From Myxococcota bacterium (lineage in GTDB: Bacteria; Myxococcota; Kuafuiibacteriia; Kuafuiibacteriales; Kuafuiibacteriaceae), in contig JBCCQA010000021.1 of assembly GCA_039024635.1 (NCBI GenBank), positions 16,942 through 80,941 on the forward strand: DNA of 64,000 bases, in the 5' to 3' direction. Shown here one piece after another: positions 2,238-59,092 of this stretch. The notes beneath the pieces were generated by a model. The model searched no databases, was not told where the DNA came from, and saw only the letters and a program-made list of their open reading frames with translations. Both the position numbers and the translations under genes were made by a program. Positions within the stretch are counted from its first letter, which is position 1; every line of letters starts with the position of its first letter.

Positions 2238-3673
2238 TGGATCACGACCGCGCTGGCGGCTACTGGGGCGCCGTCTACGTGTTCTCAGCCGTCAAAGGCC
2301 TGCAGGTCATCATCGATGGGCCGGTCGGGTGTGAGAACCTGCCGGTCACTTCGGTTCTGCACTACACGGACGGGCTTCCTCCCCACGAGCTGCCAGTCGT
2401 CGTCACTGGCCTCGCTGAAGAGGAGCTGGGCCAGAAAGGGACCGAGGACGCCATGCGACGGGCCCACGAGGTGTTGGATCCCTCTCTACCCAGCGTGGTG
2501 GTCACGGGCTCGATCGCGGAAATGATCGGAGGCGGGGTGACGCCGGAAGGCACCGGCATCCATCGTTTTCTGCCTCGCACCATCGACGAAGATCAGTGGC
2601 AGAGCGCGGACCGGGCTCTGTTCTGGTTGTGGACCCAGTACGGCGCCAAGAACGGGAAGATGCCCAAGGCGAAGAAGGGACCCGAAGGAGCCAAGCCCCG
2701 CGTCAACATCATCGGGCCGGCCTACGGCTACTTCAACACTTGGTCCGACTTGGCCGAGATCCGCAGGCTGGTGGAGGGGCTCGGAGCCGAGGTCAACATG
2801 GTGTTCCCGTTGGGCACCCATCTCGAGGACGTGCCTCGGCTGGTGGACGCCGACGCCAACGTTTGCATGTACCGGGAGTATGGACGGCTCCTATGCGAAG
2901 AGCTGGACCGACCGTACTTTCAAGCGCCGATCGGTCTGCACAGCACGACAGCCTTCCTCGAGTCCCTGGGCGACGCCCTGGGCTTGGAATCGGCCCCCTT
3001 CATCGAGAAGGAGAAGCACACCACCATAAAGCCGGTTTGGGATCTCTGGCGTTCGGTCACCCAGGACTTCTTTGGAACGGCTAGCTTCGGGGTGTCGGCC
3101 AACGAGACCTACACTCGTGGGCTACGCTACTTCTTGGAGGAGGAACTCGGGCTACCCTGCCATTTCGCCTTCGGCCGTAGCGCAGGTGTGAAGCCCGACA
3201 ACGCCACCATTCGAGAGGCCATCCAGAGCAAGCCTCCGCTGATCATCTTCGGGTCTTACAACGAGCGCATGTACATGGCGGAGACCGGCGCCCGTTCGGT
3301 CTACATACCGGCTTCCTTTCCAGGCACGGCCATCCGTCGCCATACCGGTACGCCGTTCATGGGCTATGCGGGCGCGACCTACCTACTGCAGGAGGTGTGC
3401 AATGCGCTGTTCGACGCCCTCTTCCACATCCTTCCTCTTTCCACCGATCTCGACCGGATCGAAGCGACGCCAACCCGCGCCTCTTTGCCCTGGGACGAGG
3501 ACGCGAGATCTGCCCTCGATCGCCTGCTGGAGCAGGTCCCCATATTGACTCGCATCTCGGCTGCCAAGGGTTGGCGAGATGCCATCGAACAAGAGGCCCG
3601 TCGGCGTGGTGACGCCCGAGTCTCGAACGAAGTCCTCGAGGTGGTTCGCGCCACCCGGGAAAGGGTCGCCTAG
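2228..3673 (+). CDS. bchZ: Chlorophyllide a reductase subunit Z
   Basis: Internal start [19 protein letters not shown] at 2228 within track ORF 1796..3673, overlapping the bchY stop by 10 nt; ~481 aa. NifK/BchB-like N-terminus (PVGCENLPV). Position is typical of bchXYZ. Confidence 0.75.
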
Positions 3674-4504: not shown

Positions 4505-5329
4505 ATGGCTTTGCTGAGCTTCGAAAAAAAATATCGCGTCCGCGGAGGCACGCTGATTGGCGGCGACCTGTTCGACTTTTGGGTTGGCCCCTTTTACGTC
4601 GGCTTCTTTGGCGTAACGACAATCTTCTTCACCGTCCTCGGCACGGCCTTGATCATTTGGGATGGTTCGATGGGACCGACTTGGAATCCCTGGATTCTGA
4701 ACATCGAGCCACCGCCCCTGAAATACGGCTTGGGATTCGCGCCGTTGGAGGAAGGGGGCATCTGGCAATTGGTGACCATCTGCGCGACGGGCGCCTTTAC
4801 GTCTTGGGCCCTTCGGCAGGCCGAGATCGCGCGCAAGTTGGGGATGGGCTACCACATCTCCATCGCCTACGGCACGGCCGTCTTTGCCTACGTCACGCTG
4901 GTCATCTTCAGACCACTACTCTTGGGCGCTTGGGGCCACGGCTTTCCGTACGGTGTGTTTCCGCACTTGGACTGGGTGTCGAACGTCGGCTACCAGTACC
5001 TGCACTTCCACTACAACCCAGCCCACATGATCGCGGTCAGCTTCTTCTTCACGACCACTTTCGCGTTGGCCCTTCACGGTGGCTTGATTCTGTCCACGGT
5101 CAACCCGATGGCAGGCGAGCCGGTTCGTTGCGCCGAGCACGAAGACAACTTCTTCCGTGACTTCATCGGCTACTCCATCGGCGCCGTCGGCATTCATCGC
5201 CTTGGGTTGTTCCTCGCCTTGAGCGCGGGGGTCTGGAGCGCAATCTGCATCATCATCAGCGGTCCGCTTTGGACCCGAGGTTGGCCCGAGTGGTGGGTCT
5301 GGTGGCTCGAGCTGCCGATTTGGAGTTGA
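4505..5329 (+). CDS. pufL: Photosynthetic reaction centre L subunit
   Basis: 274 aa. [37 protein letters not shown]-terminus with five TM helices and conserved His ligands, typical PufL. Confidence 0.9.
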
Positions 5330-5333
5330 GACA

Positions 5334-6308
5334 ATGATGAGGGAGTATCAAAACATCTTCACCCAGATTCAGGTGAAGGGTCCGTCGGATATCGTTCCGA
5401 TCGAAGAGGGCATCTATCCGCGCTTCGACAAGAAGATGGTGATCCACTTGCTGGGGCGGATCGGCAGCGCGCAGATTGGTCAGGTATATCTCGGCTGGTT
5501 CGGCATCACCTCCGGGCTGTGCTTCTTGATCGCCTTCGAGATCATCGGCCTCAACATGTGGGCCTCGGTGAACTGGGACCCCATCGAGTTTGTGCGACAG
5601 CTTCCATGGCTAGCGCTCGAACCCCCACCGCCCTCGAACGGTCTCAAATTCCCGCCCATGAATGCCGGAGGTTGGTGGCTCATGGCCGGCTTCTTCCTGA
5701 CCGCTTCTCTCATCCTCTGGTGGTTCCGCACCTATCGACGGGCGAGGGCGCTCGGGATGGGCACCGACGTCGCTTGGGCCTTCCTGGCAGCCATTTGGCT
5801 CTACTTGGTCTTGGGCTTCTTTCGACCCATCGCGATGGGAACCTGGGGCGAGGCCGTGCCTTTCGGGCTGTTCCCTCATCTGGATTGGACGGCGGCCTTT
5901 TCGCTCCGCTACGGCAACCTGTTCTACAATCCCTTCCACGCGCTCTCCATCGTGTTCCTCTACGGCTCGACACTGTTGTTCGCGATGCATGGCGCAACGG
6001 TGCTTGCGCTTGGACACCTAGGCGGTGAGCGGGAGATCGGTCAGATTACGGACCCTGGAACGGCTGCCGAACGCTCGGCTTTGTTCTGGCGCTGGTGCAT
6101 GGGCTTCAACGCGACCTTCGAGTCCATTCATCGCTGGGCTTGGTGGTTTGCCGTCTTGTGCTCAGTGACCGGGGGTATAGGAATTCTGTTGACGGGGACG
6201 GTGGTCGACAACTGGTACCTTTGGGCCGTCAAGCACGGTTTCGCCATTGAGTATCCGACCGTCTATCCAGTCCTCCCCGACCCGGGTCTGACCGAGGTGA
6301 CGCAATGA
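5334..6308 (+). CDS. pufM: Photosynthetic reaction centre M subunit
   Basis: 324 aa. [16 protein letters not shown] N-terminus, typical PufM. It is a separate gene from pufL, i.e. the proteobacterial-type arrangement rather than the fused L-M gene. Confidence 0.9.
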
Positions 6309-7477
6309 AGCCACTGAAGATCTCGATGAAGGAATTCTACATCCTGCTCGGCGGGGCCCTCTCCGTGGTGGTGACGGTCCTGATCTGGAACTTCTCTGCA
6401 CCACCGATCAGCGTGGTGCAGGTCGGTCCTGACGGCGCGGCGATGGAGATCGTCATCAACGAGGAGACCTTGGCGGAAATTGAGAGGGTCAACAACGAGT
6501 ACCCGCCGTCCATCCCGCCGGCGAGTCCGGACGGACCGAGGGCCTCGGAGGTGTATCAGAACGTCCAAGTCCTCGGTGACCTGTCGACGGGTCAGTTCAC
6601 CCGTTTGATGCTCGCCATTACCCAGTGGGTGGCGCCCAAGGAAGGACCGGAGAGCCAGGTCGGGTGCAACTACTGCCACAACGCCGCCAACATGGCTTCG
6701 GATGAAAAGTACGCGAAGCATGTTGCACGGCGGATGATTCAGATGACCCAGCACATCAACGCGGAATGGAAGTCCCACGTTGGGAACGTGGGCGCGACCT
6801 GCTACACTTGCCACCGCGGTCAGCCGGTGCCGTCCTACGTTTGGTACAAAGAGCCGCCTCACGCGCAGGAGGCTCGAGGAGCTGGCGGCCGAGCGCAGCA
6901 GAATCGGGCCAGCGCGGCGGTGGGTCTCGCTTCGCTTCCAGGCAACGTGTTCGAGACGTATCTGCTGGAGGACAACAACATCCGGGTGATCGGCCACACA
7001 CCGCTACCGACCGGCAACAGCTCTTCCATCAAGCAGACGGAGTGGACCTACGGGCTGATGATGCACTTCTCGAACGCGCTCGGCGTAAACTGCACCTACT
7101 GTCACAACAGTCGAGCGATGGCGATGTGGAACCAAAGCCCTCCGGCTCGGGCCAAGGCTTGGTACGCGATCCGGATGTTGCGTAGCGTGAACGGCGAGTA
7201 CACGGCGCCGTTGGTGGATCGCTATCCGGATTACCGCCTGGGTCCGACGGGGGACGCGCCCAAGGCCAACTGCTATACCTGTCACCAGGGGGCGTATCAG
7301 CCGATGCTGGGCTACAAGATGTTGGAGGACTACCCGTCGCTCTCGGCCCCCGACTACTACGCCGAGTACGCCAACGAGTACCGGAAGAAGGAGAAGGCCA
7401 AAGCGGAGGCGGCGGCCGCGCTAGAGGCGCAGGAAGAGGCGGGCGAGGACGGCGAGGCAGCGCCGGTGGCCAACTGA
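6305..7477 (+). CDS. pufC: Reaction-centre tetrahaem cytochrome c subunit
   Basis: ATGA overlap with the pufM stop. Four CxxCH motifs (CNYCH, CYTCH, CTYCH, CYTCH). N-terminal hydrophobic anchor. Unusual ~45-aa acidic Ala/Glu/Lys-rich C-terminal tail. Confidence 0.85.
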
Positions 7478-7769: not shown

Positions 7770-8426
7770 GTGAGTCATACCTTCCCTCGTTGGACGAATA
7801 AGATTCCAACCATCGTCGCCCTGGCGGTTCCGGTCATCGGAGTCGGGGTCGTCTTCGGCATGCTGTACTGGTTTTCCCCGTACTTTACCGACGTGGGGTA
7901 CATGCCGACGCAGCCCGTGCCGTACAGCCACAAGCTTCACGCGGGCAAGTTGGGCATCGATTGCCGTTACTGTCACAACACGGTCGAGAAGGCGGCCTAC
8001 GCCGCAGTTCCGCCCGCTGAAACGTGCATGAACTGCCATGCTTATGTGAAGAAGAACAGCGAGAAGCTGGCGCTGGTTCGACAATCCTACGAGACCGGCG
8101 AATCCATACCGTGGATCAAGGTTCACCAGCTCCCTGACTATTCCTACTTCGCCCATGACGTCCATGTGACGGCGGGCGTCGGTTGTGAGACCTGTCACGG
8201 GCGGATCGACCAGATGGAGAAGGTCGCCCTGCATTCGCCTCTCTCCATGGGTTGGTGTCTGCGCTGCCACCGCAACCCGGAGCCCAACCTTCGTCCCATC
8301 TCGGAGATCACGACTATGGGTTGGGAGGACTCGCCCGAGGCTGCCGAATACGACTGGGCCTCCGATCCCCACCGAATCCGCAACAACTTGCAGCCTCCTC
8401 AAAACTGCTCGGGGTGCCACCGATGA
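7770..8426 (+). CDS. actA: Alternative complex III subunit ActA (membrane-anchored pentahaem cytochrome c)
   Basis: GTG start at 7770. N-terminal TM helix. Five CxxCH motifs (CRYCH, CMNCH, CETCH, CLRCH, CSGCH). First gene of the six-gene act operon. Confidence 0.8.
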   Translation: MSHTFPRWTNKIPTIVALAVPVIGVGVVFGMLYWFSPYFTDVGYMPTQPVPYSHKLHAGKLGIDCRYCHNTVEKAAYAAVPPAETCMNCHAYVKKNSEKLALVRQSYETGESIPWIKVHQLPDYSYFAHDVHVTAGVGCETCHGRIDQMEKVALHSPLSMGWCLRCHRNPEPNLRPISEITTMGWEDSPEAAEYDWASDPHRIRNNLQPPQNCSGCHR

Positions 8427-11281
8427 CCACTGAGAACGAGACTCTGAACAAGCCGGACATCCCGAGCCGCAGGACCTTCCTTTCGGCCATGGGTGCGACC
8501 GTGGCGTCACTCAACACCGCGGCGTGCATCCGTAAGCCCTACGAGAAGATTCTGCCCTTCGGGCAGCGCCCAGAGGACCGGGTCCCCGGTCGGCCCGAGT
8601 ATTACGCTACGGCGGCGTCCGTCGGCGCTAGCGTGGTGGGCCTTCGCGTCCGGTCCAACGACGGCCGCCCGACCTTCATCGGTTCCAACAAGCAGCACCC
8701 GACCAGCAAGGGCGGGACGCCGGCTTGGGCCCAAGCTACGGTCCTCGAGCTCTACGATCCGGACCGAAGCCGAACCGCTCTGATGGACGGTGCATCCGTC
8801 GACCCCGCAGGCGCTGCCGGCGCCATCCGAGCCATGGGCAAGGCGATTCGCGACGCCGCAGGCCGAGGCCTTGCGATCCTGACCGACGAGACGCCCTCGC
8901 CGACGCTGTTCCGGTTGATGAAGACGCTCAAGGAGCAGTTCCCCGAGGCTCAGCAGTTTCGTCATGACGAGATGGGTGAGGCCAACGGCCAAGCCGGTGC
9001 AGCCATGGCCGGCATTCCGAACGCCAGCTTCTCGCTCAACGAGACGCCCGCCGTCATCGCCATTTTCGATGCCGATCCCATGGGAACCGAGGGTGACACC
9101 TGCGCCTTCGACCATGCCTTTGCTTCGGGTCGGGACCCCGATGCACCCCGTAAGAACCGCCTCTACGTCGTCGAACCGTACGTTTCGTTGACCGGCTCGA
9201 ACGCCGACCACCGCAAGGCGGTAAAGCCGAGCGAGGTCCCCGCGGTGCTGGCGGCTTTGGCTTCCGAGCTCAACAGCCATGGCTACGAGCTGCCAAAGCT
9301 TGCGGGGGCCGACGCCGCCTCAGACAAGTTCGTCAAGGCTCTCGCCAAGGACATGGCCAAGAACCAAGGCGTCTCGATGGTCATGGTCGGCGAGCGACAG
9401 CCCCCGCAGGTCCATGCTCTCGCCCACATGGTGAATGCGGCCTTGGGTGCCTACACCAAGCTCGGGGCCTGGACCCAGAGCGACGCTCCTGAGTTTCAGA
9501 CTGCGGACGAGCTGGTGGCGGGCATGAAGGCCGGTACCTTCAAGTATGTCGTCTCGCTGAGCGGGAACCCCGCCCACTCCATCCCTGGCTTCGCTGATGC
9601 GGCCGAAAAGGCCCAGGTGCTGCACCTAGGGAGCTACCTCGACGAGACCGCTCGGATCGCCAAACTGCACGTCCCGAAGAGCCACTACCTGGAAGCGTGG
9701 GGTGACCTCGTGGGGCGTGATGGCTCCGTGGCCATCCAGCAGCCGCTCATCGCGCCACTCCACGAATCCAAGTCAGCCATCGAGGTGCTGGCCACCATTC
9801 TCGGTTCCAAAGAGAGCGGCTACGAGCAGGTGCGAGACACCCACCGAAGCCACGTGGCGTCCGGTGATTTCGAGAAGTCCTGGCAGGTCTGGCTGCACGA
9901 TGGCGTCGTCCAGAGTCACCCGGTTCAGCGCGTCGAGCCGGCCATTCAGGCGGCCCAGATCGAGGGCTATCCAAAGGCCGGTTCGAGCGATCTCGAGGCC
10001 GCTTTCATTCGAGACCTGACGGTCTTGGACGGGCGCTTCGCCAACAGCCCCTGGCTCCAGGAGCTCCCTGACCCCGTCACCAAGTTGTCTTGGGACAACG
10101 CTCTGCTCTTGAGCCCCGACACGGCCGAGAAGCTCGGCCTCAAGAATGAGGACATGGCGACGGTCACCTTGAACGGAGCGTCTCTCGACCTTCCCGTTTG
10201 GATCCAGCCGGGCACCGCGGACGACGTGGCCGTCCTTCCCTTGGGCTACGGCCGCGAAGGGGTAGGGCAGTACGCCAGCAGCGGCTTCGATGTGTCGGGG
10301 CTCCGACCTGTCGACGGCACATGGTCGGCGAGCGGCGTCCAGATCAAGAAGACCCCGGGAAGCTATCGCCTCGCGTGTCAGCAGCTCGAGAGCGACCAGT
10401 ACGGACGGCCCATCGTTCGTGAGGCTTCCCAGACGGACTTCACGGCCGACGAGAACTTCGTCGCGAAATTCGAGGTCATGAAACCGGAGCACATCGACTC
10501 TCTCTTGTGGGAGGAGCCTGTGCTTCCCTGGGCCAAGGGCGAGCAGCATCAGTGGGCTGTTTCGATCGACCTCAACAAATGCTCGGGATGCTCCGCCTGT
10601 GTCGTGGCCTGCCAGGCTGAGAACAATATTCCGTGGGTTGGCAAGAGCGAGGTCCTGAAGGGCCGCGAAATGCACTGGATGAAGATCGACCGATACTTCA
10701 AGGACAACAACGGACAGTTCGAGGTGAAGTATCAGCCCATGGGCTGTGCTCAGTGTGAAACCGCTCCGTGCGAGAACGTTTGTCCCGTAGGTGCATCGGC
10801 TCACAGCCCGGAGGGCCTCAACGACATGGCCTACAACCGGTGCATTGGAACGCGCTACTGCGCCAACAACTGCCCGTACAAGGTCCGTAGGTTCAACTTC
10901 TTTCACTACACCGTGCGAAACGACGGCGAGTACGGGATGGGCATCACCATGCAGCGCAACCCGGACGTCACGGTTCGCTACCGCGGGGTCATGGAGAAGT
11001 GCACCTACTGTGTGCAGCGGATCCAGCGAGCCAAGATCTACCAGAAGGTGAATGGAGGCGGCGACACGAAGGTTAAAGATGGCGCCATCGTGACTGCCTG
11101 CGAGGAGGCTTGCGGGACGGGGGCCATGGTCTTCGGCAACATGGCCGACCCCGAGTCTCGGGTCGCCAAGATGAAGAACAATCCGAGGAACTATGCCGTA
11201 CTGGCCGAAATCAACATCCGGCCCCGGACGACGTATCTCGCCAAGCTGACGAACCCCAACCCTGAGTTGGCGGAAGGGTGA
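8423..11281 (+). CDS. actB: Alternative complex III subunit ActB (molybdopterin-oxidoreductase-like domain fused to a 4x[4Fe-4S] ferredoxin domain)
   Basis: Start at ATG 8423 (ATGA overlap with the actA stop), MTTENETLNKPDIPSRRTFLSAMGA twin-arginine signal, ~952 aa. C-terminal Cys clusters CSGCSACVVAC, CAQCETAPCENVCP, CIGTRYCANNCP, CTYCVQR...CEEACGTGA. The track ORF start at 8252 lies inside actA. Confidence 0.8.
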   Translation: MTTENETLNKPDIPSRRTFLSAMGATVASLNTAACIRKPYEKILPFGQRPEDRVPGRPEYYATAASVGASVVGLRVRSNDGRPTFIGSNKQHPTSKGGTPAWAQATVLELYDPDRSRTALMDGASVDPAGAAGAIRAMGKAIRDAAGRGLAILTDETPSPTLFRLMKTLKEQFPEAQQFRHDEMGEANGQAGAAMAGIPNASFSLNETPAVIAIFDADPMGTEGDTCAFDHAFASGRDPDAPRKNRLYVVEPYVSLTGSNADHRKAVKPSEVPAVLAALASELNSHGYELPKLAGADAASDKFVKALAKDMAKNQGVSMVMVGERQPPQVHALAHMVNAALGAYTKLGAWTQSDAPEFQTADELVAGMKAGTFKYVVSLSGNPAHSIPGFADAAEKAQVLHLGSYLDETARIAKLHVPKSHYLEAWGDLVGRDGSVAIQQPLIAPLHESKSAIEVLATILGSKESGYEQVRDTHRSHVASGDFEKSWQVWLHDGVVQSHPVQRVEPAIQAAQIEGYPKAGSSDLEAAFIRDLTVLDGRFANSPWLQELPDPVTKLSWDNALLLSPDTAEKLGLKNEDMATVTLNGASLDLPVWIQPGTADDVAVLPLGYGREGVGQYASSGFDVSGLRPVDGTWSASGVQIKKTPGSYRLACQQLESDQYGRPIVREASQTDFTADENFVAKFEVMKPEHIDSLLWEEPVLPWAKGEQHQWAVSIDLNKCSGCSACVVACQAENNIPWVGKSEVLKGREMHWMKIDRYFKDNNGQFEVKYQPMGCAQCETAPCENVCPVGASAHSPEGLNDMAYNRCIGTRYCANNCPYKVRRFNFFHYTVRNDGEYGMGITMQRNPDVTVRYRGVMEKCTYCVQRIQRAKIYQKVNGGGDTKVKDGAIVTACEEACGTGAMVFGNMADPESRVAKMKNNPRNYAVLAEINIRPRTTYLAKLTNPNPELAEG

Positions 11282-11287
11282 CCCATC

Positions 11288-12682
11288 ATGGATATGCGTT
11301 CGAACGTTGACCTCGTCGATCGGCGCCCTGCGCTCGTCGACCCCCACGAAGACTTCCAAGCGATCACGAAGCGTGTGGCGGCGCCCATCGAGTGGAAGAC
11401 GCCCATCGGTTGGTGGCTCTTCTTCATACCTTCGGTTCTCCTGGCCGCCAGCTACGGCGGGAGCGTCGCTTATCTGGTTTGGGAAGGAACCGGCATCTGG
11501 GGCATCAATAATCCCGTTTTCTGGGGTTGGGCCATCGTCAACTTTGTCTTCTGGGTCGGTATTGGCCACGCAGGCACGCTAATCTCGGCCGTTCTCTTCC
11601 TCTTTCGACAGAAGTGGCGCACCAGCATCAACCGCTTCTCAGAGGCCATGACGCTCTTCGCCGTGGCCTGCGCCCTTTCATTTCCAACCATTCACGTCGG
11701 TCGAATCTGGCTTCTGTACTGGGTCGCCCCAGTTCCGAACTCCATGTTGGCTTGGCCCAACTTCCGGAGTCCTCTCCTCTGGGATGTTTTCGCTGTGAGC
11801 ATCTACGGCTCGGTTTCGCTGTTGTTCTGGTACGTGGGCCTCATCCCCGACCTGGCCACGATGCGGGACCGCGTCACCTCCAAGCTCGGAAAGTTCGCTT
11901 ACGGTATCTTTGCTCTTGGCTGGCGAGGGTCTACCCGACACTGGCGCCACTACGAGGTGGCCTACATGCTGCTCGCCGGTCTCGCCACTCCCCTGGTGCT
12001 GTCGGTGCACTCTGTGGTGTCATTCGACTTCGCCGTGTCCCAGCTGCCTGGCTGGCACACCACCATCTTCCCACCCTACTTTGTTGCGGGTGCCATCTTC
12101 TCCGGCTTCGGCATGGTTCTGACGCTGATGCTCATCGCTCGCGTCATCTTCAAGATGGAGAACATCGTCACGATGCATCACATCGACAACATGGCGAAGG
12201 TCGTACTCTTGACCGGGTCCATCGTCGGCTACGCCTACGCGATGGAGTTCTTCGTGGCTTGGTACAGCGGTAGCCAGTACGAGCTCTTCGCCTTCATCAA
12301 TCGGGCGACCGGTCCTTACGCGGGCGCCTACTGGACGATGGTCACCTGCAACGTGGTCATTCCCCAGATTCTGTGGTTCCAGAAGATGCGTCACAACATC
12401 GTACTGCTCTTCATCATCTCGATTTTCGTGAACATCGGAATGTGGTTCGAGCGCTACGTTATCGTCATTACGCTTACCCGAGACTTTCTCCCCTCGAGCT
12501 GGGGCTACTACAGCCCGACTTTCTGGGACGTGTCATGCTTCCTGGGTAGCTTTGGCCTCTTCTTCACTCTGTTCTGCCTATTCGTCCGCTTCCTTCCCAT
12601 GATCGCCATGGCCGAAGTGAAGACGGTCGTGCCTGAAGCCGATCCTCACCCCGAAGAGGCGGCGACTGGAGGTGCCCATTGA
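11288..12682 (+). CDS. actC: Alternative complex III subunit ActC (NrfD/PsrC-like polytopic quinol-interacting membrane subunit)
   Basis: 464 aa, ~10 TM helices. Follows actB by 7 nt. Confidence 0.8.
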
Positions 12683-13212
12683 GCAACAAGACCTTCGGCG
12701 TCCTCGCCGAATTCGACACCCCCGCCTCCGTCTTTGAGGCCTGTGAGAAGGTCCGAGACGCCAAGTTCTCGAGGTGGGACTCCCACACGCCCTTCCCAGT
12801 GCATGGGCTGGAGTTTGCAATGGGCATGGGCCGCTCTCGGCTGCCCATCTTCGTGTTCGCTTGCGGCATCAGTGGGGCGTCTGGAGCGATGCTTCTCCAA
12901 TGGTGGACCTCTGCCGTCGACTACCCGATGATCATCGCCGCCAAGCCATTCTTCTCATGGCAGGCCTTCATCCCGGTCACCTTCGAGGCGATGGTTCTGT
13001 TCTCGGCGGTCTCTGCCGTGCTGGGGATGCTGTTTCTCAACCGTCTTCCTCGCTGGCACCATCCGTTGCTGACCTCTGAGCGTTTCAAGTCAGCCTCGGA
13101 TCACAAGTTCTTCATTTCGATCGAGGCGAGTGACCCGCAGTTCGACCCGGAGAAGACACCCGAGTTTCTCCATTCCCTGGGCGCGACCTACGTCGAGTTG
13201 GTGGAAGACTGA
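12679..13212 (+). CDS. actD: Alternative complex III subunit ActD
   Basis: 177 aa. Overlaps the actC stop. Small membrane protein in the canonical actD position. Confidence 0.6.
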
Positions 13213-13215
13213 ACG

Positions 13216-13845
13216 ATGAAGCACCTAAGTCTCATGATTGCGACGGGGGCGCTCGCCACGGCTTGCCAGGGCGGGACCTTTCCTCAGCCCCCGATTCACC
13301 TGAACCAGAACATGGACTTCCAGAAGAGGATCGAGCCCCAGGAAGAGAATCCGTACACGGGAACCATGGGCAATCGGAAGCCCGTCGAGGGTACGGTTCG
13401 GATGGGCGGACTTACCATCGACGACCACCTTCACCGAGGGAAGATCGATGGCGAGCTCGTGGAAGAACTCCCCGACGTCGACGAGAAAGGGATGCCCATA
13501 GAAATGAACGAGGCTTTCCTCGCTCGGGGTCAGGAGCGCTACAACGTCTATTGCCAGCCCTGCCACGCCCAGACGGGCTCAGGAAAAGGGCTTGTGTCGG
13601 TCAACTCGGGCGGCAACATACAGCCCCCCGCTCTTTACAATGAACGGCTGCTGACCATGCCCATCGGGCACTTCTACAACGTCATCACCAACGGGGTGAA
13701 CGGCAACATGCCCCCTTACCGCGCGCAGATCCCGGTCGGTGACCGGTGGGCCATTGCGGCTTACGTACGCGTTCTTCAGCGTGCGGCCTTTGCCGACGTT
13801 GGCGCCGTTCCGGGCGACGTCGCGAAAGAGAAAGGCTGGAACTGA
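13216..13845 (+). CDS. actE: Alternative complex III subunit ActE (monohaem cytochrome c lipoprotein)
   Basis: Signal peptide with lipobox (LATAC). Single CQPCH haem motif. 209 aa. Confidence 0.75.
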   Translation: MKHLSLMIATGALATACQGGTFPQPPIHLNQNMDFQKRIEPQEENPYTGTMGNRKPVEGTVRMGGLTIDDHLHRGKIDGELVEELPDVDEKGMPIEMNEAFLARGQERYNVYCQPCHAQTGSGKGLVSVNSGGNIQPPALYNERLLTMPIGHFYNVITNGVNGNMPPYRAQIPVGDRWAIAAYVRVLQRAAFADVGAVPGDVAKEKGWN

Positions 13846-13848
13846 GTC

Positions 13849-15285
13849 ATGGGTCATCATCGGCTGCGGGCCATCCCTCCGGACGTCAAGACACGCTTCG
13901 AAGGTAGCTCGCCTTGGCGAAAATACCCCTTCATCTTCTGGGGCGTTGGGGTCGTCTGTCTGATGGCTGCCTTTGCCTTTGGCCAGGGCGGCGCCGAGGA
14001 GCACGCCTCCATCGGCTTTGAATCTGTCGCCCTGGCCGACCATCACGACGACGGCGAAGCCCATGGCCACGAAGCCCATCACGGCGGCGACGCGCATGAC
14101 GGCGACAAGGCCCATCACGACCACGATGGCCACGGGGCGAAGGGAGCGCACGGGAGCGGTGGCGGTCATGGAGACGAAGACCACGGCGACGATGGAGGCC
14201 ACGGCCACCATCATGGTGAGCTGACCCGCTTTTCATTTAGCTACCTTACGGCGTTCATGTACGGACTGAGCCTGGCCCTCGGAGGCCTGTTCTTCGTACT
14301 TGTTCAGTTCCTCGCGCGTGCCGGATGGAGCGTAGTCGTGCGCCGCATCGCCGAGAACGTCATGGCCACGCTCCCACTCTTCGGCTTGCTCTTCATTCCT
14401 GTGTACCTAGGGCTGTCGAGTACCCACTTCCACTGGTGGCACTTCGAAGGGCACGACCCCCTGCTCGACCACAAGGCGCCCTACCTGGATGAGAACTTCT
14501 TTATCCTCCGAGCCATCTTCTACATTGTAGTCTGGGTCGGCCTTGCCTTCTTCTTCTGGCGAAACTCGACCGCTCAGGACAACTCCGGTGAGCATGACCT
14601 GACCCGACGCATGCAGAACCTATCCCCGCTCGGGATGATCCTCTTCGCCCTCACGACGACCTTTGCTGCCGTGGATTGGATGAAGTCCATGGACCCGCAC
14701 TGGTTCTCTACGATGTTCGGGGTCTACTACTTCGCGGGTTGCGTCGTGGGTATCTTTGCCACTTTGTCCGTATTGACCATCTGGTTGCAGTCCTCGGGCT
14801 ACGTCAAAACGATCATCAACGCTGAGCACTACCACGACATCGGTAAGCTCCTGTTCGGCTTCGTGGTCTTCTGGACCTACATCACGTTCAGCCAGTATTT
14901 CCTGATTTGGTACGCCAACATTCCAGAGGAGACGCTCTGGTACTACCACCGCACGACTCATGGGTGGGAGAACGTGGGTGTGGCCATCATGATCGGCCAC
15001 TTCTTCATTCCGTTCTTCTTCCTGTTGCCCCGCGGCATCAAGCGGAACCCGAAGACCTTGATCCTTGGCGCCCTTTGGCTACTCGGCATTCACTACCTGG
15101 ACCTCTACTACGTCGTGATGCCCATTCTGGACGAGAGCCCCCACTTCACCATCGTGGACCCTTTGTGCCTGGTTGGCATCGTGTGTTTGTTTTTGGGCAC
15201 GTTCGCATTCGTGGCCGGTCGGTCGGATCTCGTTCCGGTCAAGGACCCAAGGCTTCCGGAGTCACTAGCCTTCCAGAACCTCTGA
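13849..15285 (+). CDS. actF: Alternative complex III subunit ActF (second NrfD-like membrane subunit), carrying an unusual ~60-aa His/Asp/Gly-rich insert near the N-terminus
   Basis: 478 aa polytopic membrane protein paralogous to ActC. Residues ~65-125 read ADHHDDGEAHGHEAHHGGDAHDGDKAHHDHDGHGAKGAHGSGGGHGDEDHGDDGGHGHHHGE. Confidence 0.75.
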   Translation: MGHHRLRAIPPDVKTRFEGSSPWRKYPFIFWGVGVVCLMAAFAFGQGGAEEHASIGFESVALADHHDDGEAHGHEAHHGGDAHDGDKAHHDHDGHGAKGAHGSGGGHGDEDHGDDGGHGHHHGELTRFSFSYLTAFMYGLSLALGGLFFVLVQFLARAGWSVVVRRIAENVMATLPLFGLLFIPVYLGLSSTHFHWWHFEGHDPLLDHKAPYLDENFFILRAIFYIVVWVGLAFFFWRNSTAQDNSGEHDLTRRMQNLSPLGMILFALTTTFAAVDWMKSMDPHWFSTMFGVYYFAGCVVGIFATLSVLTIWLQSSGYVKTIINAEHYHDIGKLLFGFVVFWTYITFSQYFLIWYANIPEETLWYYHRTTHGWENVGVAIMIGHFFIPFFFLLPRGIKRNPKTLILGALWLLGIHYLDLYYVVMPILDESPHFTIVDPLCLVGIVCLFLGTFAFVAGRSDLVPVKDPRLPESLAFQNL

Positions 15286-18843: not shown

Positions 18844-19076
18844 GAGAGTGTGGGCAGAAATGCGAGCTCAGGGCCGCTGAAGGCTGGGTGGTGGGGAGTC
18901 ATCGACAGGCCTCCGCCAAGCGCTTCAGGCCACGTTTTAGCCCGTGCCCGGCAGGCTCTGAGCTTCGCCGTCCTGGAGGGTGTGGGGGGGGAGGACGCCA
19001 TCGGCGCCATCCATCATGGGCCAAAGGGCCATGCAAGTGGAAGCGCTAGACCGAGGTGTGGCTCTAGAGGAGCGCT

Positions 19077-19328
19077 TCAAGCTTCTCGGCTTTGAAGGGC
19101 TGAGCGAGGGTAAGGACTGCTGGAGGCTCGGTAGCTGCAAAGCCCCACATGCGAGTTGATGAGGAGGCCAGAAAACAGGTGCGAGAGGCGTTTGCTCAGG
19201 GTCCAGCCGTGCATGTCCGGCATCGAAGTCTCGACCAAGGTCACGTCGTGGGCGTCTGGTTGGGGGTGGAAGGCCTCCAGAGCATCGAGAGGGAACTCTA
19301 GGGCGGTCAAACTAGTGGCCGAGCAGAA
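19077..19328 (-). pseudogene. Fossil fragment of a response-regulator receiver domain (N-terminus missing, phospho-Asp position replaced)
   Basis: Translation ...ALEAFHPQPDAHDVTLVETSMPDMHGWTLSKRL resembles the receiver core (PDLVLLDxMMPGMDGxEL) but lacks the N-terminal DD pocket. An in-frame stop lies immediately upstream. Only a TTG start is available. Confidence 0.25.
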
Positions 19329-19592
19329 TCAGGAGTCGGCTGAGAAGCCATCGATCCCCAGCCTCGTCTTCCACCACCAGGACCCGAAGGGGTTTGCCGT
19401 TGGGATTCGCGTCGGGACCCGATGGCTGGGTCTATGTCGTACTGCCGACGCTCTGAAACAGGAGAGGAAGCCGGACATCGAAGCGCGTCCCCGAGCCTAT
19501 CTTGCCGTCACCTTCGATGACTCCTCCGTGCCTACGGCTGGTCAGCTGTGCCGCCTGGTGCGACGCCTTCCTGCCACACGGTCCGACCAGGC

Positions 19593-20477
19593 TCACTTGT
19601 TTGGGCGTCCGAACTCATCGGCGGACCGCAGGAGGTTGAGCGGCATTCGGAGCTGCCGGTGGCCTCGAGCGTCTTCTTTGGGCAGACGACCTGCATCGAT
19701 GTTCACTTGGACGCTTTGAAAGAGAAGTTTCGGAGCCGGCAGGCCGCTATCACGGCCTTGTCGCATGGCTACGAAACCTTCGGCCTCGGTCTCGGCTGTA
19801 AGCTGGATGTTCTTGGCCTTGGATTCTCCGATGGTGGTCTCGTAGGCCAGCGCCCTACCGTTTGGCTGATAATCGTGACCAACGAAGACACGCGTCGTGT
19901 CGGGAAGGGTGTAGAGCTTGTCCTGGATCGATCTGTAAAGGGCCTCGGCCGAACCTTTGGGAAAGTCGCAGCGACCCGTTCCGAAGTCCGGCATGAAGAG
20001 GGCGTCTCCCGTGAAGACTGCGTCGCCGATCACGTAGCTGACGCAGGCCGGCGTGTGCCCGGGGGTCTCCAAGACGCCGATGTCGAGCGAGCCGGCTTCG
20101 AGTCGGTCCCCCTCTTGCACCAGCCGGTCGAACTGAGACCCGTCGACCGGAAAGCTCTCCTCCAGGCTGAGCAGTTCCTTGAAGCCGGACTGGACCTCGG
20201 TGATCCGATGACAAATGACGATGGGGGCTTCGGTGACGCGACGTAAGAACTGCGAACCACTGAGATGATCGGCGTGCGCATGGGTTTCGAGAATGAAATG
20301 CGTGTCCAGGCTTCGGGCTTCCAGGAAGGCACGGACGGCCTCGACCGACGTCGTATCTGTATTTCCGGAATGAGGGTCGTAGTCGAGGACAGGGTCAATC
20401 ACGACCGCGTCCGAGCCATTGGACACGACATAGGTGATCGTGAAGGTAGGGGGATGGTAGAAGGCTTTGACGTCCAT
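19593..20477 (-). CDS. Persulfide dioxygenase-like metallo-beta-lactamase-fold protein (ETHE1/PDO family)
   Basis: HAHADH metal-binding motif plus downstream His/Asp ligands. 294 aa. Divergent from a FisR-like sigma54 activator and preceded by a -24/-12 promoter. Confidence 0.6.
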
Positions 20478-20491
20478 GCCGCTGTAGTGAG

Positions 20492-20506
20492 CAACGCCCG
20501 TGCCAT
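20492..20506 (-). promoter_or_regulatory. Sigma54 (-24/-12) promoter for the PDO gene: TGGCAC-gggcg-TTGCT on the minus strand
   Basis: Plus-strand text is GCAACGCCCGTGCCA. Reverse complement fits the TGGCAC-N5-TTGCW consensus. ~15 nt upstream of the PDO start. Confidence 0.5.
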
Positions 20507-20596
20507 GAGCGTCTTAGCGCCAATGGTCGGAAGAGACGGTTCTGGAAAGGCCCCGTCGGTTGCTCGGCTGCCATCCCTGGCAGTATCTTTTTCTCC

Positions 20597-21931
20597 GTGG
20601 TGGCAGTTGGACAGCTGGGTTTGGAGCAACTGCAAAGCATCGACGAGCCCGCCATCCTGATCTCCACCGACTATCGGGTTTTGGCGGCCAACGAGGCGTA
20701 TAGGGCTCGATTCCCGGGCATGATCGAGCCCGGCGTCTCTCGATGCCACGGCGTTTCCCACGGCTACGACAACCCCTGTGACCAACACGGCGAGTCCTGT
20801 CCGCTCAAGAAGGCGGGAGTCTCCAAGCGAACCGAGCGGGTCTTCCACGTGCACCATGGACCAGAGGGTTTGGAGCACGTCGACATCAAGTTGGAGCCGG
20901 TCTTCGATGCTCGCGGCGACCTTGCCGGCTTCATCGAGGTCATCAAGCCGATAGAGATCGCCCAGGCCGAGCCTGCCAGCGGCTTCGTCGGGCGATCGAC
21001 CGCTTTCAGCGAAATGCTGGGTTTGCTGCAGCGCGGTGCATCGAGCGAGGTACCCATTCTGCTCTTGGGTGAGTCGGGTTCAGGCAAGGAGCTGGCGGCT
21101 AGGGCCGTCCACGACTCGAGCCCTCGGGCCGAAGGTCCCTTCGTCCCAGTCGAGTGCTCGGGGCTCAACGACGCTCTCTTCGAGTCGGAACTCTTCGGGC
21201 ACGTTAGAGGCGCCTTCACTGGCGCGACGGCGCCCAAGCCGGGCTTGATTGAGGCGTCGGTCGGGGGGACTCTCTTTCTGGACGAGATAGGTGACGTACC
21301 GCTGAGCATGCAGGTCAAGTTGCTGCGCCTGTTGGAGTCCGGCACCTTTCGCCGAGTGGGGGACGTAGCGCCCCAGCGGGCAGACTTCCGGCTCGTTTGC
21401 GCGACCCATCGAGACTTGGATCGGTTGGTGCAGCAGGGTGCGTTTCGCCAAGATCTCTACTTTCGAATCAACGCCTTTCCAATCCCGATGCCGAGCCTCC
21501 GAGATCGTCCGGATGACCTCGACTTGCTGAGCGCTTCCCTTCTCGAGGGCTCGGGCAAGCGTCTCTCCAGCGGAGCCTTGGCTCGCTTGAAGGCCTATCC
21601 CTTTCCGGGCAACGTACGCGAACTCCGCAATATCCTCGAGCGGGCGACGCTCCTGGCCGACGGCGAGTTCCTGTTCGAGGAGCACCTCCCCGACCACGTC
21701 CGCGGGGCCATCCATACAGAGGGCTCGGCAGAAGCAGTCGGACCGCCGCCCGGATGGCCGACCGCAATCGTGCCCTTGGAAGAGGCCATCGCCCACTACT
21801 TGCGGTGGGCCGAGGGCCAGCATCGAGGTGACCGGGTGGCCTTGGCCAAGCGTCTGGGATTAAGCGAGCGGACACTGTACCGGCGGCTTCGTTCGGCTGC
21901 CATGGCTGACGATTCTGTCAGTGATGACTGA
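20597..21931 (+). CDS. fisR: Sigma54-dependent transcriptional activator, FisR-like (Cys-containing sensory N-domain + AAA+ sigma54-interaction domain + HTH)
   Basis: GTG start. N-domain has C50-x10-C61-x6-C68 ([22 protein letters not shown]). AAA+ motifs GESGSGKE and GAFTGA. C-terminal HTH. Flanked on both sides by sigma54 promoters in front of sulfide-oxidation genes. Confidence 0.65.
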
Positions 21932-21984
21932 CGTCCTCGGCGTGACGCCGCCCGTCATCTAGCGCCGGGGGGGACCCCGCAGCC

Positions 21985-22000
21985 TGGCCCATCGGTTGCA
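21985..22000 (+). promoter_or_regulatory. Sigma54 (-24/-12) promoter TGGCCC-atcgg-TTGCA upstream of the DUF1641-sqr operon
   Basis: Matches TGGCAC-N5-TTGCW with correct spacing. 13 nt upstream of ATG 22013. Confidence 0.55.
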
Positions 22001-22012
22001 GACGCACGGGTC

Positions 22013-22672
22013 ATGACCGCAGTGACTTCTCATCCCCCTTCGGGCCAAGAGGCGACGCTTGTCCGCATCGAAGCCCGGCTGGCCAGGATGGAGCGAGCTC
22101 TTCAACCCGTCGAGACCGTTGCCATCCAGGCTCCGCTTCTGATGGCCACCGTGACGGAGATGGCCGACGCCTTGGCTTCAAGGATGGGTGACGTCGACGC
22201 TCGGACCCAGTCCCTGGCCGACATTGCAGAGCGCCTGACCCGGCCTCAGACCATCGAGACGCTGAACCGGCTCCTGGAAATCGCCGAGGCGGCGCCCCAC
22301 TTGGTGGCCACGATGACCGATATGGCCGACGAAGCCATGGCTCAGTTGACCCAGCACGACATCCCGGTCGAGCACCTGGTCCAAATCGGTTCCGCCTTCG
22401 TCCAAGGGCTCGTCCGATTGGCCACGGCCCCAGAGGTTCGCCACTTGCTGGAGTCCGGCATGCTCAACCCGGAAGCTCTTGGCGCCTTGGGACGGGCCGC
22501 AGATGCCCTAGCCGAGGCTTCAAGCGCACCTCGGCGAAGAGTCGGCGCCTTCGGGGCCCTTCGGGCCCTCGGTCACGAAGATGTTCAATCTGCCCTCGGC
22601 TTCTTGCTCGAAGTCGCCCAGCGCTTTGGCGCCTCGAGGAACGACGACCGTGGCCTCCCCTCTGGAACCTGA
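22013..22672 (+). CDS. DUF1641-like protein (frequent companion of sqr)
   Basis: 219 aa, helical, Ala/Leu-rich. Position immediately upstream of the SQR gene in the same operon matches the conserved DUF1641-sqr pairing as I recall it. Confidence 0.4.
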   Translation: MTAVTSHPPSGQEATLVRIEARLARMERALQPVETVAIQAPLLMATVTEMADALASRMGDVDARTQSLADIAERLTRPQTIETLNRLLEIAEAAPHLVATMTDMADEAMAQLTQHDIPVEHLVQIGSAFVQGLVRLATAPEVRHLLESGMLNPEALGALGRAADALAEASSAPRRRVGAFGALRALGHEDVQSALGFLLEVAQRFGASRNDDRGLPSGT

Positions 22673-22686
22673 AAGGAAAGCTCAGA

Positions 22687-23871
22687 ATGTCTCATCACGA
22701 AATCCTCATCGTTGGCGGCGGAACCGCCGGAATCAGCGTCGCCTCGCGCATCATGGAAAGCTCTTCAACGAGCGATGTCGCCCTCGTCGAGCCGGCCGAA
22801 ATGCACTACTACCAACCTCTTTGGACACTCGTCGGGGGTGGGGTCTTCGATCGGGAGGACAGCGGCCGTCCCATGGCCGATGTCATGCCCAGCGGCGTGG
22901 ACTGGTATCGAAATAGGGTCTCCGGCTTCGAGCCCGCGTCGAATCAGGTTGAGCTCGATGATGGTCGTAAGCTCAGCTACGATATCCTGGTCGTAGCGGC
23001 AGGGATTCAGCTCGACTGGAACAAGATCGAGGGCCTCCCCGAGTCTCTCGGCACGAATGGGGTTTGTAGCAACTACTCCTACGACACCGTTCCATACACT
23101 TGGGAGCTCCTGAAGAACTTTACCGGTGGCGAGGCGCTCTTCACCTTTCCCAGCACACCCATCAAGTGCGCGGGTGCTCCACAGAAGATAATGTATCTGG
23201 CTGAGGAGACTTTCAGGCGCAACGGCGTCCGGAGCCGCACCCACGTCAACTACATGTGCGCGGCCGGTGCGATTTTCGGGATCCCGAAGTACCGAGCGGC
23301 GCTGGAGAGGATCGTGTCCAGTCGCGGGATCGACGCGGAGTTCAAGAAGGACCTCGTGGCCATCCGTGCTTCCGAGAAAGTGGCCGTGTTCAAAGACATG
23401 GACACCGGAGCCACCGAGGAACGGAACTTCGACATGATCCACGTGACGCCGCCTCAATCGGCGCCGGACTTCATCAAGCAGAGCTCGCTAGCCGGGACGA
23501 CGGGTTGGGTCGAAGTCGACAAGCATACGCTGCAGCACGAGCGATTCCCGAACGTCTTCTCCTTGGGAGACTGCAGCAACCTTCCTTGCTCGAAGACGGG
23601 GGCAGCCGTGCGAAAGCAAGCGCCGGTCCTCGTGGAGAACATTCTAGCCTATAGGACTGGAAGCGCGATGAGCGGGCACTACGATGGCTATGCCTCTTGT
23701 CCGCTGGTCACCGGCTACGGAAGGGTCATCCTGGCCGAGTTCGGCTACGAAGGGAAGGTCATGGAGACTTTTCCTTTCGACCAGGCGCAGGAGCGATACT
23801 CGATGTACGCGCTGAAGGCATACGGGCTACCTCAGATGTACTGGCACGGCATGCTGCGAGGCCGGCTTTGA
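22687..23871 (+). CDS. sqr: Type II sulfide:quinone oxidoreductase (SQRDL-like flavoprotein)
   Basis: N-terminal FAD fold IVGGGTAGISVA. Both SQR catalytic cysteines in their conserved contexts: PIKCAGAPQKIMYL and LGDCSNLPCSKTGAAV (compare the human SQOR Cys201/Cys379 motifs as I recall them). Confidence 0.75.
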   Translation: MSHHEILIVGGGTAGISVASRIMESSSTSDVALVEPAEMHYYQPLWTLVGGGVFDREDSGRPMADVMPSGVDWYRNRVSGFEPASNQVELDDGRKLSYDILVVAAGIQLDWNKIEGLPESLGTNGVCSNYSYDTVPYTWELLKNFTGGEALFTFPSTPIKCAGAPQKIMYLAEETFRRNGVRSRTHVNYMCAAGAIFGIPKYRAALERIVSSRGIDAEFKKDLVAIRASEKVAVFKDMDTGATEERNFDMIHVTPPQSAPDFIKQSSLAGTTGWVEVDKHTLQHERFPNVFSLGDCSNLPCSKTGAAVRKQAPVLVENILAYRTGSAMSGHYDGYASCPLVTGYGRVILAEFGYEGKVMETFPFDQAQERYSMYALKAYGLPQMYWHGMLRGRL

Positions 23872-58981: not shown

Positions 58982-59092
58982 AGCTAGAGCAACTGCCGTG
59001 CCGAAAGCTGGTCCGGTTTCCCGGGCGGATGAGGTGGGGAGGGTGTTCCGTTTCGGTCAGAGCGGGCCGAAACGGAACGAATAGCCCGCCTG

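Follow-up and report, generated by a model that had tools for sequence, protein, structure and literature searches.

A probable FisR-type, sigma54-dependent sulfide/persulfide regulon with a DUF1641-linked sulfide:quinone oxidoreductase in an uncultured phototrophic Myxococcota bacterium

The sigma54 activator FisR of Cupriavidus pinatubonensis JMP134 (Li et al. 2017, as cited in secondary sources) is reported to be a sensor of sulfane sulfur that works through three cysteines of its R domain, with polysulfide inducing a tetrasulfide link between Cys53 and Cys64. FisR of Acinetobacter baumannii is also a sigma54 activator, is encoded with a divergent pdo-sqr(-tauE) operon, and is needed for sulfide tolerance (PMC7315123). 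SqrR/BigR and CstR likewise sense sulfane sulfur through cysteine cross-links and control sqr or pdo genes, but they are ArsR/CsoR-family repressors of sigma70 promoters. Here, we describe a locus at positions 19593 to 23871 of a 64-kb stretch of Myxococcota DNA (contig JBCCQA010000021.1; the whole stretch is called the window below), in which a sigma54 activator gene lies between genes for a persulfide dioxygenase (PDO) on one side and for a DUF1641 protein and a sulfide:quinone oxidoreductase (SQR) on the other. We believe, with a probability of roughly 85%, that this locus is a FisR-type, sigma54-dependent sulfide/persulfide-responsive regulon of an uncultured phototrophic Myxococcota. Regulons of this kind are known, but this lineage is new for them.

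A second described family bears on the locus. DUF1641 proteins act as scaffolds for enzymes that reduce quinone, tethering them to the membrane and channeling quinone (PMC13524794). Examples are HucM with the hydrogenase Huc, ForE with formate dehydrogenase (ForCE), and Ncp, which is YjlC, with NDH-2 (PMC13524794, PMC8808070). A tetrameric hydrophobic tube, to which the enzyme binds and through which quinone passes, characterizes these scaffolds.

The genes and predicted promoters of the locus are as follows.

19593-20477, minus strand: PDO, type II, 294 amino acids (Pfam Lactamase_B)
20490-20505, minus strand: predicted sigma54 promoter of PDO, TGGCACGGGCGTTGCT, perfect consensus (pattern match, 0 mismatches)
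20597-21931, plus strand: FisR-type sigma54 activator, 444 amino acids, GTG start (Pfam PAS_4, Sigma54_activat, AAA_lid_14, and HTH_8)
21985-22000, plus strand: predicted sigma54 promoter of DUF1641-SQR, TGGCCCATCGGTTGCA (pattern match, 1 mismatch)
22013-22672, plus strand: DUF1641 protein, 219 amino acids (Pfam DUF1641)
22687-23871, plus strand: SQR, type II, 394 amino acids, a flavoprotein disulfide reductase

The activator has the three-domain architecture of an enhancer-binding protein, with a PAS-like N-domain (PAS_4, residues 13 to 117), an AAA+ domain (Sigma54_activat, residues 131 to 296, followed by AAA_lid_14), and a Fis-type helix-turn-helix (HTH_8, residues 408 to 432). Walker A lies at residue 158, an intact GAFTGA at 205, and Walker B at 226. 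The initial annotation of this DNA had named the four genes, two sigma54 motifs, and three N-domain cysteines with C-x10-C-x6-C spacing, and each of these was found in the sequence, the cysteines at residues 50, 61, and 68 of the PAS-like domain. It had also likened this arrangement to that of Cupriavidus FisR, a likeness that held up upon alignment. In a tblastn search of plasmids and chromids, the best match was the chromid of Cupriavidus metallidurans CH34 (53% identity over 95% of the query), and blastp aligned the two proteins over residues 9 to 433 at 53% identity (E value of 2e-152). The C. metallidurans homologue has 441 amino acids and is encoded divergently from pdo and then sqr. In that protein, the first cysteines are C53, C64, and C71, which pair column for column with C50, C61, and C68. 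The sensing positions are thus conserved, and the refuting condition named in the initial annotation (cysteines not shared with FisR upon alignment) does not hold. We take the third sensing cysteine of C. pinatubonensis FisR to be at 71 as well, in line with the C. metallidurans sequence.

All three cysteines are invariant in 30 homologues (53 to 68% identity) from Myxococcota and from Gamma-, Beta-, and Alphaproteobacteria, as are S54, H55, P60, E66, P69, H84, and H86. The AlphaFold2 model of the activator is of high confidence (predicted local distance difference test [pLDDT] of 91.5) and places the cysteines in short helices of the PAS core. Foldseek with this model returned generic AAA+ activator domains only (FleQ, FlrC, ZraR, and NtrC1), and a sequence search of the PDB with the sensor domain found no homologue. 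A protein with 100% identity to the activator is encoded in the Myxococcota metagenome-assembled genome (MAG) GCA_039186575.1 (contig JBCDAB010000002.1). Because it has the regulatory-domain cysteines that A. baumannii FisR lacks, the window protein belongs to the Cupriavidus subtype. Taken together, these alignments support its assignment as a Cys-type orthologue of Cupriavidus FisR.

The enzymes encoded on either side belong to the same classes as those beside Cupriavidus fisR. PDO has a metallo-beta-lactamase fold and a metal motif HAHADH from H66 (HxHxDH). Its PDB matches are 9g8t (E value of 6e-83), 4efz, and 4ysk (E value of 1e-72), all of which we take to be type II PDO structures, 4ysk being presumably that of Pseudomonas putida; matches to the type I structure 4ysb and to ETHE1 are weaker. 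It also matches the dioxygenase half of the NCBIfam Blh model. By these matches, PDO is a type II persulfide dioxygenase. SQR aligns with human SQOR (PDB 6oi5/6mo6) over residues 1 to 392 (E value of 9e-139), is 48% identical to C. metallidurans SQR, and has the motif GGGTAG for binding flavin adenine dinucleotide (FAD) at residues 10 to 15. Both catalytic cysteines are retained, as had been claimed, and align with those of human SQOR: C161 (PIKCAGAPQK) with PVKCAGAPQK and C338 (YASCPLVTGY) with YTSCPLVTGY, which we take to be C201 and C379. The second is therefore C338 and not the cysteine of the GDCSNLPC motif. The C-terminal helix carries A375 and A378, to which we return below. Judged by this homology, SQR is type II, that is, human SQOR-like.

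Searching the window for the sigma54 pattern TGGCNC-N5-TTGCW gave exactly two matches on both strands of the 64 kb, both at this locus, against 0.16 expected; only 1 of 100 shuffles of the window reached two. Two sigma54 promoters had been proposed here, and both motifs are present. The plus-strand coordinates given for the DUF1641-SQR promoter were right, while those given for the minus-strand promoter (20492 to 20506) were off by 1 to 2 nt. Sigma54 motifs also lie upstream of the orthologous PDO and DUF1641 genes in Myxococcota relatives and in many metagenomic loci.

We noticed palindromes by eye in the window, and similar ones in two Myxococcota relatives (loci L084 and L085), and list here the sites termed upstream activating sequences (UAS), together with a promoter-like element that overlaps one of them.

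20568-20583: UAS1, candidate FisR site, CTGCCA-TCCC-TGGCAG (CTGCCATCCCTGGCAG), 14 nt before the fisR GTG
21906-21930: UAS2, candidate FisR sites, CTGACGATTCTGTCAG (21906-21921) and an overlapping weaker palindrome (21915-21930), within the 3' end of fisR
20560-20589, plus strand: tentative sigma70-type fisR promoter, TTGCTC-N18-TATCTT, found by eye, overlapping UAS1 and with 7 nt between the end of its -10 element and the GTG

Measured from the predicted transcription starts of PDO and DUF1641, the centers of UAS1 and UAS2 are 96.5 and 97.5 bp upstream, i.e., about 97 bp in each case. The pattern CTGNC-N6-GNCAG is not enriched across the window (3 matches versus 2.2 expected). Across 36 fisR loci, the sequence flanking fisR makes up 6% of the total but contains 14 of the 25 pattern matches (p=3e-11), and still about 10 of 21 once the four sites that suggested the pattern are dropped. 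A position weight matrix trained on 13 sites from other loci only ranked the site at 21906 first in the 64 kb (18.8 bits), that at 20568 second (14.3 bits), and that at 21915 fourth (11.3 bits). Helical phase between UAS and promoter is kept in six of eight cases, which is suggestive only and was not used. Given this ranking and flanking, we take both palindromes (CTGNCA-N4-TGNCAG) as candidate FisR enhancer sites. The promoter consensus scan did not report TTGCTC-N18-TATCTT, so this fisR promoter is weak; if it is real, its overlap with UAS1 would allow autoregulation of fisR.

Related TGGCAG/CTGCCA palindromes are present in the pdo-fisR spacer of the C. metallidurans CH34 chromid. There (L081, 5880-5935), CACTGCCAACTTGGCAGTG forms a perfect palindrome of 19 bp, and two further TTGGCAG repeats, 9 to 10 bp apart, come after it. 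The pdo promoter in this spacer reads TGGCACGGGTTTTGAG and has a non-GC -12 element.

Gene neighborhoods bear on the signal of the family. Four Myxococcota relatives keep fisR together with PDO, DUF1641, and SQR genes: L084 and L085 in the same order as the window, L086 with DUF1641-SQR divergent from fisR, and L087 as fisR-DUF1641-SQR-PDO. Other family members adjoin pdo-sqr, cydAB, or a Tll0287-like gene with a flavoprotein gene. The cydAB genes encode cytochrome bd, a sulfide-insensitive oxidase, and these pdo-sqr and cytochrome bd neighbors fit sulfide as the signal of the FisR family. Cys-type orthologues in Proteobacteria often lie beside cydAB with a sigma54 motif upstream (L003, 1489-4645; L005, 3102-4682; L016, 3057-4604; L011, 6383-9284), which suggests that cydAB belongs to the FisR regulon in those Proteobacteria. 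In two metagenomic loci (L089, 3112-6173; L091, 202-3388), PDO and DUF1641-SQR are divergent, with both sigma54 promoters in one short spacer. Since fisR does not lie between the two units there, the two-promoter layout is independent of a central fisR.

Several points weigh against this reading of the locus as a FisR regulon. We made the FisR comparison through the congeneric C. metallidurans orthologue and not through the characterized C. pinatubonensis protein. A. baumannii FisR lacks regulatory-domain cysteines and still works (PMC7315123), so the cysteines are not the sole possible route of sensing, and the invariant H55, H84, H86, and E66 near them could hold a metal or cofactor outside the published FisR model. 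Among the operators, UAS2 sits in coding sequence, L084 and L085 have half-sites only upstream of their DUF1641 promoters, and UAS-promoter distances elsewhere range from 75 to 243 bp. UAS1 together with ATCTTTTTCT (20567-20593) also scores on the plus strand as an intrinsic-terminator-like hairpin with a T-run; no gene ends there, and this score is probably coincidental to the operator role. No rpoN gene lies within the 64-kb window. The regulon had been called complete, which was an overstatement: no sulfite exporter, rhodanese, or sulfite oxidase gene was found nearby, so the pathway is incomplete within the locus. Finally, we infer all functions of the regulon (expression, transcription starts, and binding) from sequence.

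The distance between each promoter and its start codon is short and constant. It had been put at 13 to 15 nt, and we measured exactly 12 nt at both, from the PDO promoter to the ATG at 20477 (CACTACAGCGGC) and from the DUF1641 promoter to the ATG at 22013 (GACGCACGGGTC). Neither spacer contains a Shine-Dalgarno sequence. Starts further upstream are impossible for either open reading frame (ORF), and the protein alignments begin at residues 1 to 10. If the C of TTGC is taken as -12, then +1 falls two nucleotides ahead of the ATG when the gap is 12 nt. The gap thus predicts a leader of 0 to 3 nt; an mRNA counts as leaderless when its leader is no longer than 5 nt. From geometry alone, this implies that the PDO and DUF1641-SQR mRNAs are near-leaderless. 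The SQR cistron has the following element.

22673-22680, plus strand: Shine-Dalgarno-like AAGGAAAG, 6 nt before the SQR ATG

This internal cistron would therefore be translated conventionally.

The competing explanation is that the close spacing has no functional meaning, the translated mRNAs coming from upstream starts (e.g., by read-through from fisR) or the sigma54 transcripts starting elsewhere. No terminator was found between fisR and DUF1641, and remoter relatives have leaders of 18 to 108 nt with GGAGG-type Shine-Dalgarno sequences, both of which fit this explanation. Conservation argues the other way. Orthologous PDO promoters in L084 and L085 keep the 12-nt gap and their DUF1641 promoters have a 13-nt gap (10 nt in L091), all without a Shine-Dalgarno sequence; the spacing is thus kept at both promoters in three genomes, although the L084 and L085 proteins are just 54 to 72% identical to those of the window. 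The contrast between the two promoter-proximal ATGs and the SQR cistron also speaks for leaderless starts. So does the over-representation of such spacings: 10 to 14 nt is the commonest class, with 10 cases (several of them orthologous) among 80 sigma54-like sites in all loci examined, versus roughly 1.6 per 5-nt bin if spacings were spread evenly. The third sigma54-like site of the window is likewise followed by an ATG at 12 nt. Moreover, leaderless mRNAs have been reported in myxobacteria, there for a sigma-A promoter. Weighing both sides, we regard meaningless spacing as a serious contender that falls somewhat short of even odds, and keep as our inference that sigma54 promoters of this lineage directly yield leaderless mRNAs. 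Our literature search turned up no leaderless sigma54 example.

The third sigma54-like promoter, CGGCACGGCAGTTGCT (58988-59003, minus strand), lies in a 111-bp spacer before an ORF at 58259-58981. The encoded protein opens with a DxHxHSxxSDG-type motif and, judged by eye, is similar to PHP-type phosphoesterases. ATGs lie 6 and 12 nt downstream of the promoter, the latter with the geometry of both FisR promoters. As a further candidate for leaderless starts, we considered the 11- to 12-nt spacing downstream of fisR in Pseudomonas and Oxalobacteraceae and rejected it; the motif precedes cydA, whose true start is far downstream.

The DUF1641 gene is the other feature that sets this locus apart. 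Its product matches PF07849 (E value of 6e-8, residues 175 to 206) and HucM (PDB 7uus_Q; E value of 9.5e-4). In the DUF1641 region of known members, an aromatic residue between positively charged neighbors inserts into the bilayer; it is Trp in Huc and Phe in Ncp (PMC13524794). Here, F180 in RRRVGAFGALRAL is nearly invariant, flanked by arginines, and aligned with the HucM Trp. The protein has no cysteine whatsoever and is thus not a sulfur carrier. Its AlphaFold2 monomer model is all-helical and of low confidence (pLDDT of 56). By homology, we place the protein in the HucM/ForE/Ncp quinone-conduit superfamily.

DUF1641 and SQR are separated by 14 nt and form one operon. In a scan of metagenome contigs for SQR, DUF1641 lay directly upstream of SQR in 17 of 80 loci, and the pair also occurs in the four relatives. 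A neighbor-joining tree gathers the linked SQRs in one clade, in which 20 of 22 members are linked, compared to 1 of 58 outside. Two alignment columns alone separate this clade (100% versus 0%), A375 (otherwise L or I) and A378 (otherwise R or K), and both belong to the membrane-anchoring helix at the C terminus of SQOR. Bacillus subtilis Ndh lacks membrane-binding residues and depends on Ncp (PMC13524794), and the helix substitutions of the linked SQRs parallel that case. The A375/A378 signature could also be purely phylogenetic. From the tight operon, the co-inheritance with an SQR clade, A375/A378, the lack of cysteine, and the arginine-flanked F180, we tentatively propose, as a possibility that does not reach even odds, that the DUF1641 protein joins type II SQR in a complex like those of HucM, ForE, and Ncp, in which a helical scaffold would hold SQR and give it access to membrane quinone.

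It is a realistic prospect, though hardly the expected one, that the DUF1641 protein is no partner of SQR at all, being either an unrelated passenger in the operon or an assembly factor without a role in quinone access. Many type II SQRs lack a neighboring DUF1641 gene, that of Cupriavidus included, and Cupriavidus SQR reportedly works without DUF1641. The SQR C-terminal tail is of like length in linked and unlinked enzymes, and the monomer model is uninformative. A mere passenger or assembly factor accords poorly with the 14-nt gap within one operon, with the recurrence of the pair in metagenomic loci and relatives, with the near-confinement of linkage to one clade, and with two diagnostic changes in that clade's membrane-binding helix. 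In addition, all three characterized DUF1641 proteins pair with quinone reductases.

Some observations on the clade stand apart from this argument. L104 (SQR at 1522-2712) and L106 (SQR at 5001-6191) are closely related, lie inside the linked clade, and have no detectable DUF1641 upstream; either DUF1641 was lost secondarily or the partner is too divergent for the hidden Markov model. We looked for hidden DUF1641 genes upstream of the SQRs scored as unlinked and found none. A search for homologues of the DUF1641 protein returned 11 proteins only, and tblastn against plasmids returned none. A truncated C-terminal tail was considered as a mark of linked SQRs and rejected, as many enzymes of both groups end in a 2-residue tail after MLRG.

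Based on the homologies above, the regulon might work as follows. Basal SQR would convert incoming H2S to sulfane sulfur, and polysulfide or persulfide would cross-link C50 and C61 (with C68) in the sensor domain, releasing the AAA+ domain. FisR bound at the palindromes would then remodel sigma54-RNA polymerase at both promoters, giving PDO and DUF1641-SQR transcripts that may begin 0 to 3 nt from their start codons, with the SQR cistron using its Shine-Dalgarno-like element. SQR would hand sulfide electrons to quinone, the DUF1641 protein possibly serving as its scaffold or quinone-access partner, and PDO would oxidize the resulting glutathione persulfide with O2 to sulfite/thiosulfate.

The electrons passed to quinone raise the question of photosynthesis, since the window holds the following genes upstream of the module.

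519-3673: adjacent bchYZ-like ORF pair, nitrogenase-like oxidoreductases (bchYZ/NB-type reading)
4505-5329: pufL
5334-6308: pufM
6305-7477: pufC
8252-15285: alternative complex III operon (ActB-like, 8252-11281; NrfD-like, 11288-12682; ActD; cytochromes c)

The host is thus a phototrophic Myxococcota. The module could be chiefly an energy module that feeds sulfide electrons into the quinone pool for the nearby type II reaction center and alternative complex III, with detoxification secondary. Such a link is possible because any SQR reduces quinone and pufLMC is about 13 kb away; the puf, bch, and alternative complex III genes lie 4 to 15 kb upstream in the same window. Phototrophic Myxococcota have been documented, in a paper that discusses neither electron donors nor SQR. 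Several features make a primary energy role improbable. Cupriavidus and mitochondria use SQRs of this type II, SQOR-like class for detoxification. The enzyme that accompanies SQR here, PDO, requires O2, and the regulator is of the persulfide-sensing type. Myxococcota relatives and Proteobacteria have the same module, and no Sox, Dsr, or flavocytochrome c sulfide dehydrogenase genes were seen near it. The combination of type II SQR, O2-dependent PDO, and persulfide sensor implies a detoxification/homeostasis type of system, and sulfide electron donation to the reaction center is speculation.

It is also improbable that the activator senses another signal (e.g., oxygen/redox, peroxide, nitric oxide, or metal) by way of a metal or cofactor held by Cys3/His ligands of the PAS domain, and that the sulfur genes respond to that signal and not to sulfane sulfur: the invariant His and Glu residues beside the three cysteines are a typical ligand set, the peroxide-sensing enhancer-binding protein PexR is known from Myxococcota, many thiol sensors in the literature react to peroxide as well as sulfane sulfur, and the sensor domain lacks a PDB homologue, but the cysteines occupy exactly the positions that form polysulfide links in Cupriavidus FisR, and the neighbors across the family (SQR, PDO, and cytochrome bd) are sulfide specific.

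Further observations come from elsewhere in the window. The gap at 18844-19592, downstream of PDO, had been reported to hold no obvious rhodanese, TusA, or sulfite exporter gene, and a check of it confirmed that no rhodanese, TusA, or TauE gene is there. On its minus strand is a decayed, frameshifted remnant of a hybrid histidine kinase in two frames, with the C-terminal end of the HATPase domain (GGVIEGDGKIGSGTRFDVRLPL) followed by a receiver domain, KPLRVLVVEDE ... DVTLVETSMPDMHGWTLSKRL. In L084 and L085, a Tll0287-like heme-PAS gene occupies the equivalent position after PDO; we sought it in the gap, and it is absent. Tll0287-like (c-heme PAS-like) genes recur beside fisR or downstream of PDO (L001, 4111-4734, in a Chromatiaceae MAG; L084, 3147-3797, and L085, 3455-4060, in Myxococcota) and are absent from the window. 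The Tll0287-like gene may be an unrecognized member of the regulon. Rfam and tRNA scans of the whole window found no RNA genes. The minus strand at 51646-53040 encodes another sigma54 activator, a response regulator of the NtrC type with receiver, AAA+, and HTH_8 domains, which implies that the organism employs sigma54 outside the FisR module.

Compared with Cupriavidus, by way of C. metallidurans, the locus shares the PAS-like R domain, sigma54 AAA+ domain, and Fis helix-turn-helix of the activator, the three equivalent cysteines, the position of fisR beside pdo and sqr genes that are both of type II, a target sigma54 promoter, and TGGCAG/CTGCCA palindromes in the control region. It differs in layout, as Cupriavidus has a single divergent pdo-sqr operon and the window has fisR between two sigma54 units. 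The two halves of the palindrome are 4 nt apart in the window, compared to 3 nt in C. metallidurans. Further differences from Cupriavidus are the DUF1641 gene that accompanies SQR, the promoters lying right at the start codons, and the phototrophic myxobacterial host. Like A. baumannii FisR, the window activator would serve sigma54, but it has the regulatory-domain cysteines that the former lacks; compared to SqrR/BigR and CstR, it is a sigma54 activator and not a repressor. SQR resembles human SQOR over its full length and shares with it the two catalytic cysteines, the fold that binds FAD, and the C-terminal helix, but is about 20 residues shorter at the C terminus, and it has A375/A378 where DUF1641-less relatives have hydrophobic/basic residues. 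The DUF1641 protein shares with HucM, ForE, and Ncp a small, helical, cofactor-less build, a C-terminal DUF1641 region, a gene beside that of a quinone-reducing enzyme, and an arginine-flanked aromatic residue. Its partner would be SQR, which is not among the described partners; the Ndh-Ncp pair has been reported only in Bacillota, whereas the window is from Myxococcota. The DUF1641 helper protein and the promoters abutting start codons are new details relative to the known system. The variant features, namely fisR between two sigma54 units with identically placed enhancers, near-leaderless geometry, and a DUF1641-coupled SQR clade, merit follow-up.

The locus widens the range of the Cys-type FisR persulfide sensor from Betaproteobacteria to Myxococcota, and CTGNCA-N4-TGNCAG offers a testable operator motif for the whole FisR family. 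It is also a natural test case of whether sigma54 promoters can drive leaderless translation. The conserved DUF1641-SQR pair is a candidate for a new scaffolded sulfide-oxidizing complex with two diagnostic residues. If such a complex exists, SQR would add a fourth class to the enzymes that the DUF1641 superfamily serves and would be the first sulfur enzyme among them, and the pairing would be the first of the DUF1641 type beyond the described Bacillota and actinobacterial cases. For phototrophic Myxococcota, the regulon may provide an inducible route for sulfide electrons into the quinone pool.

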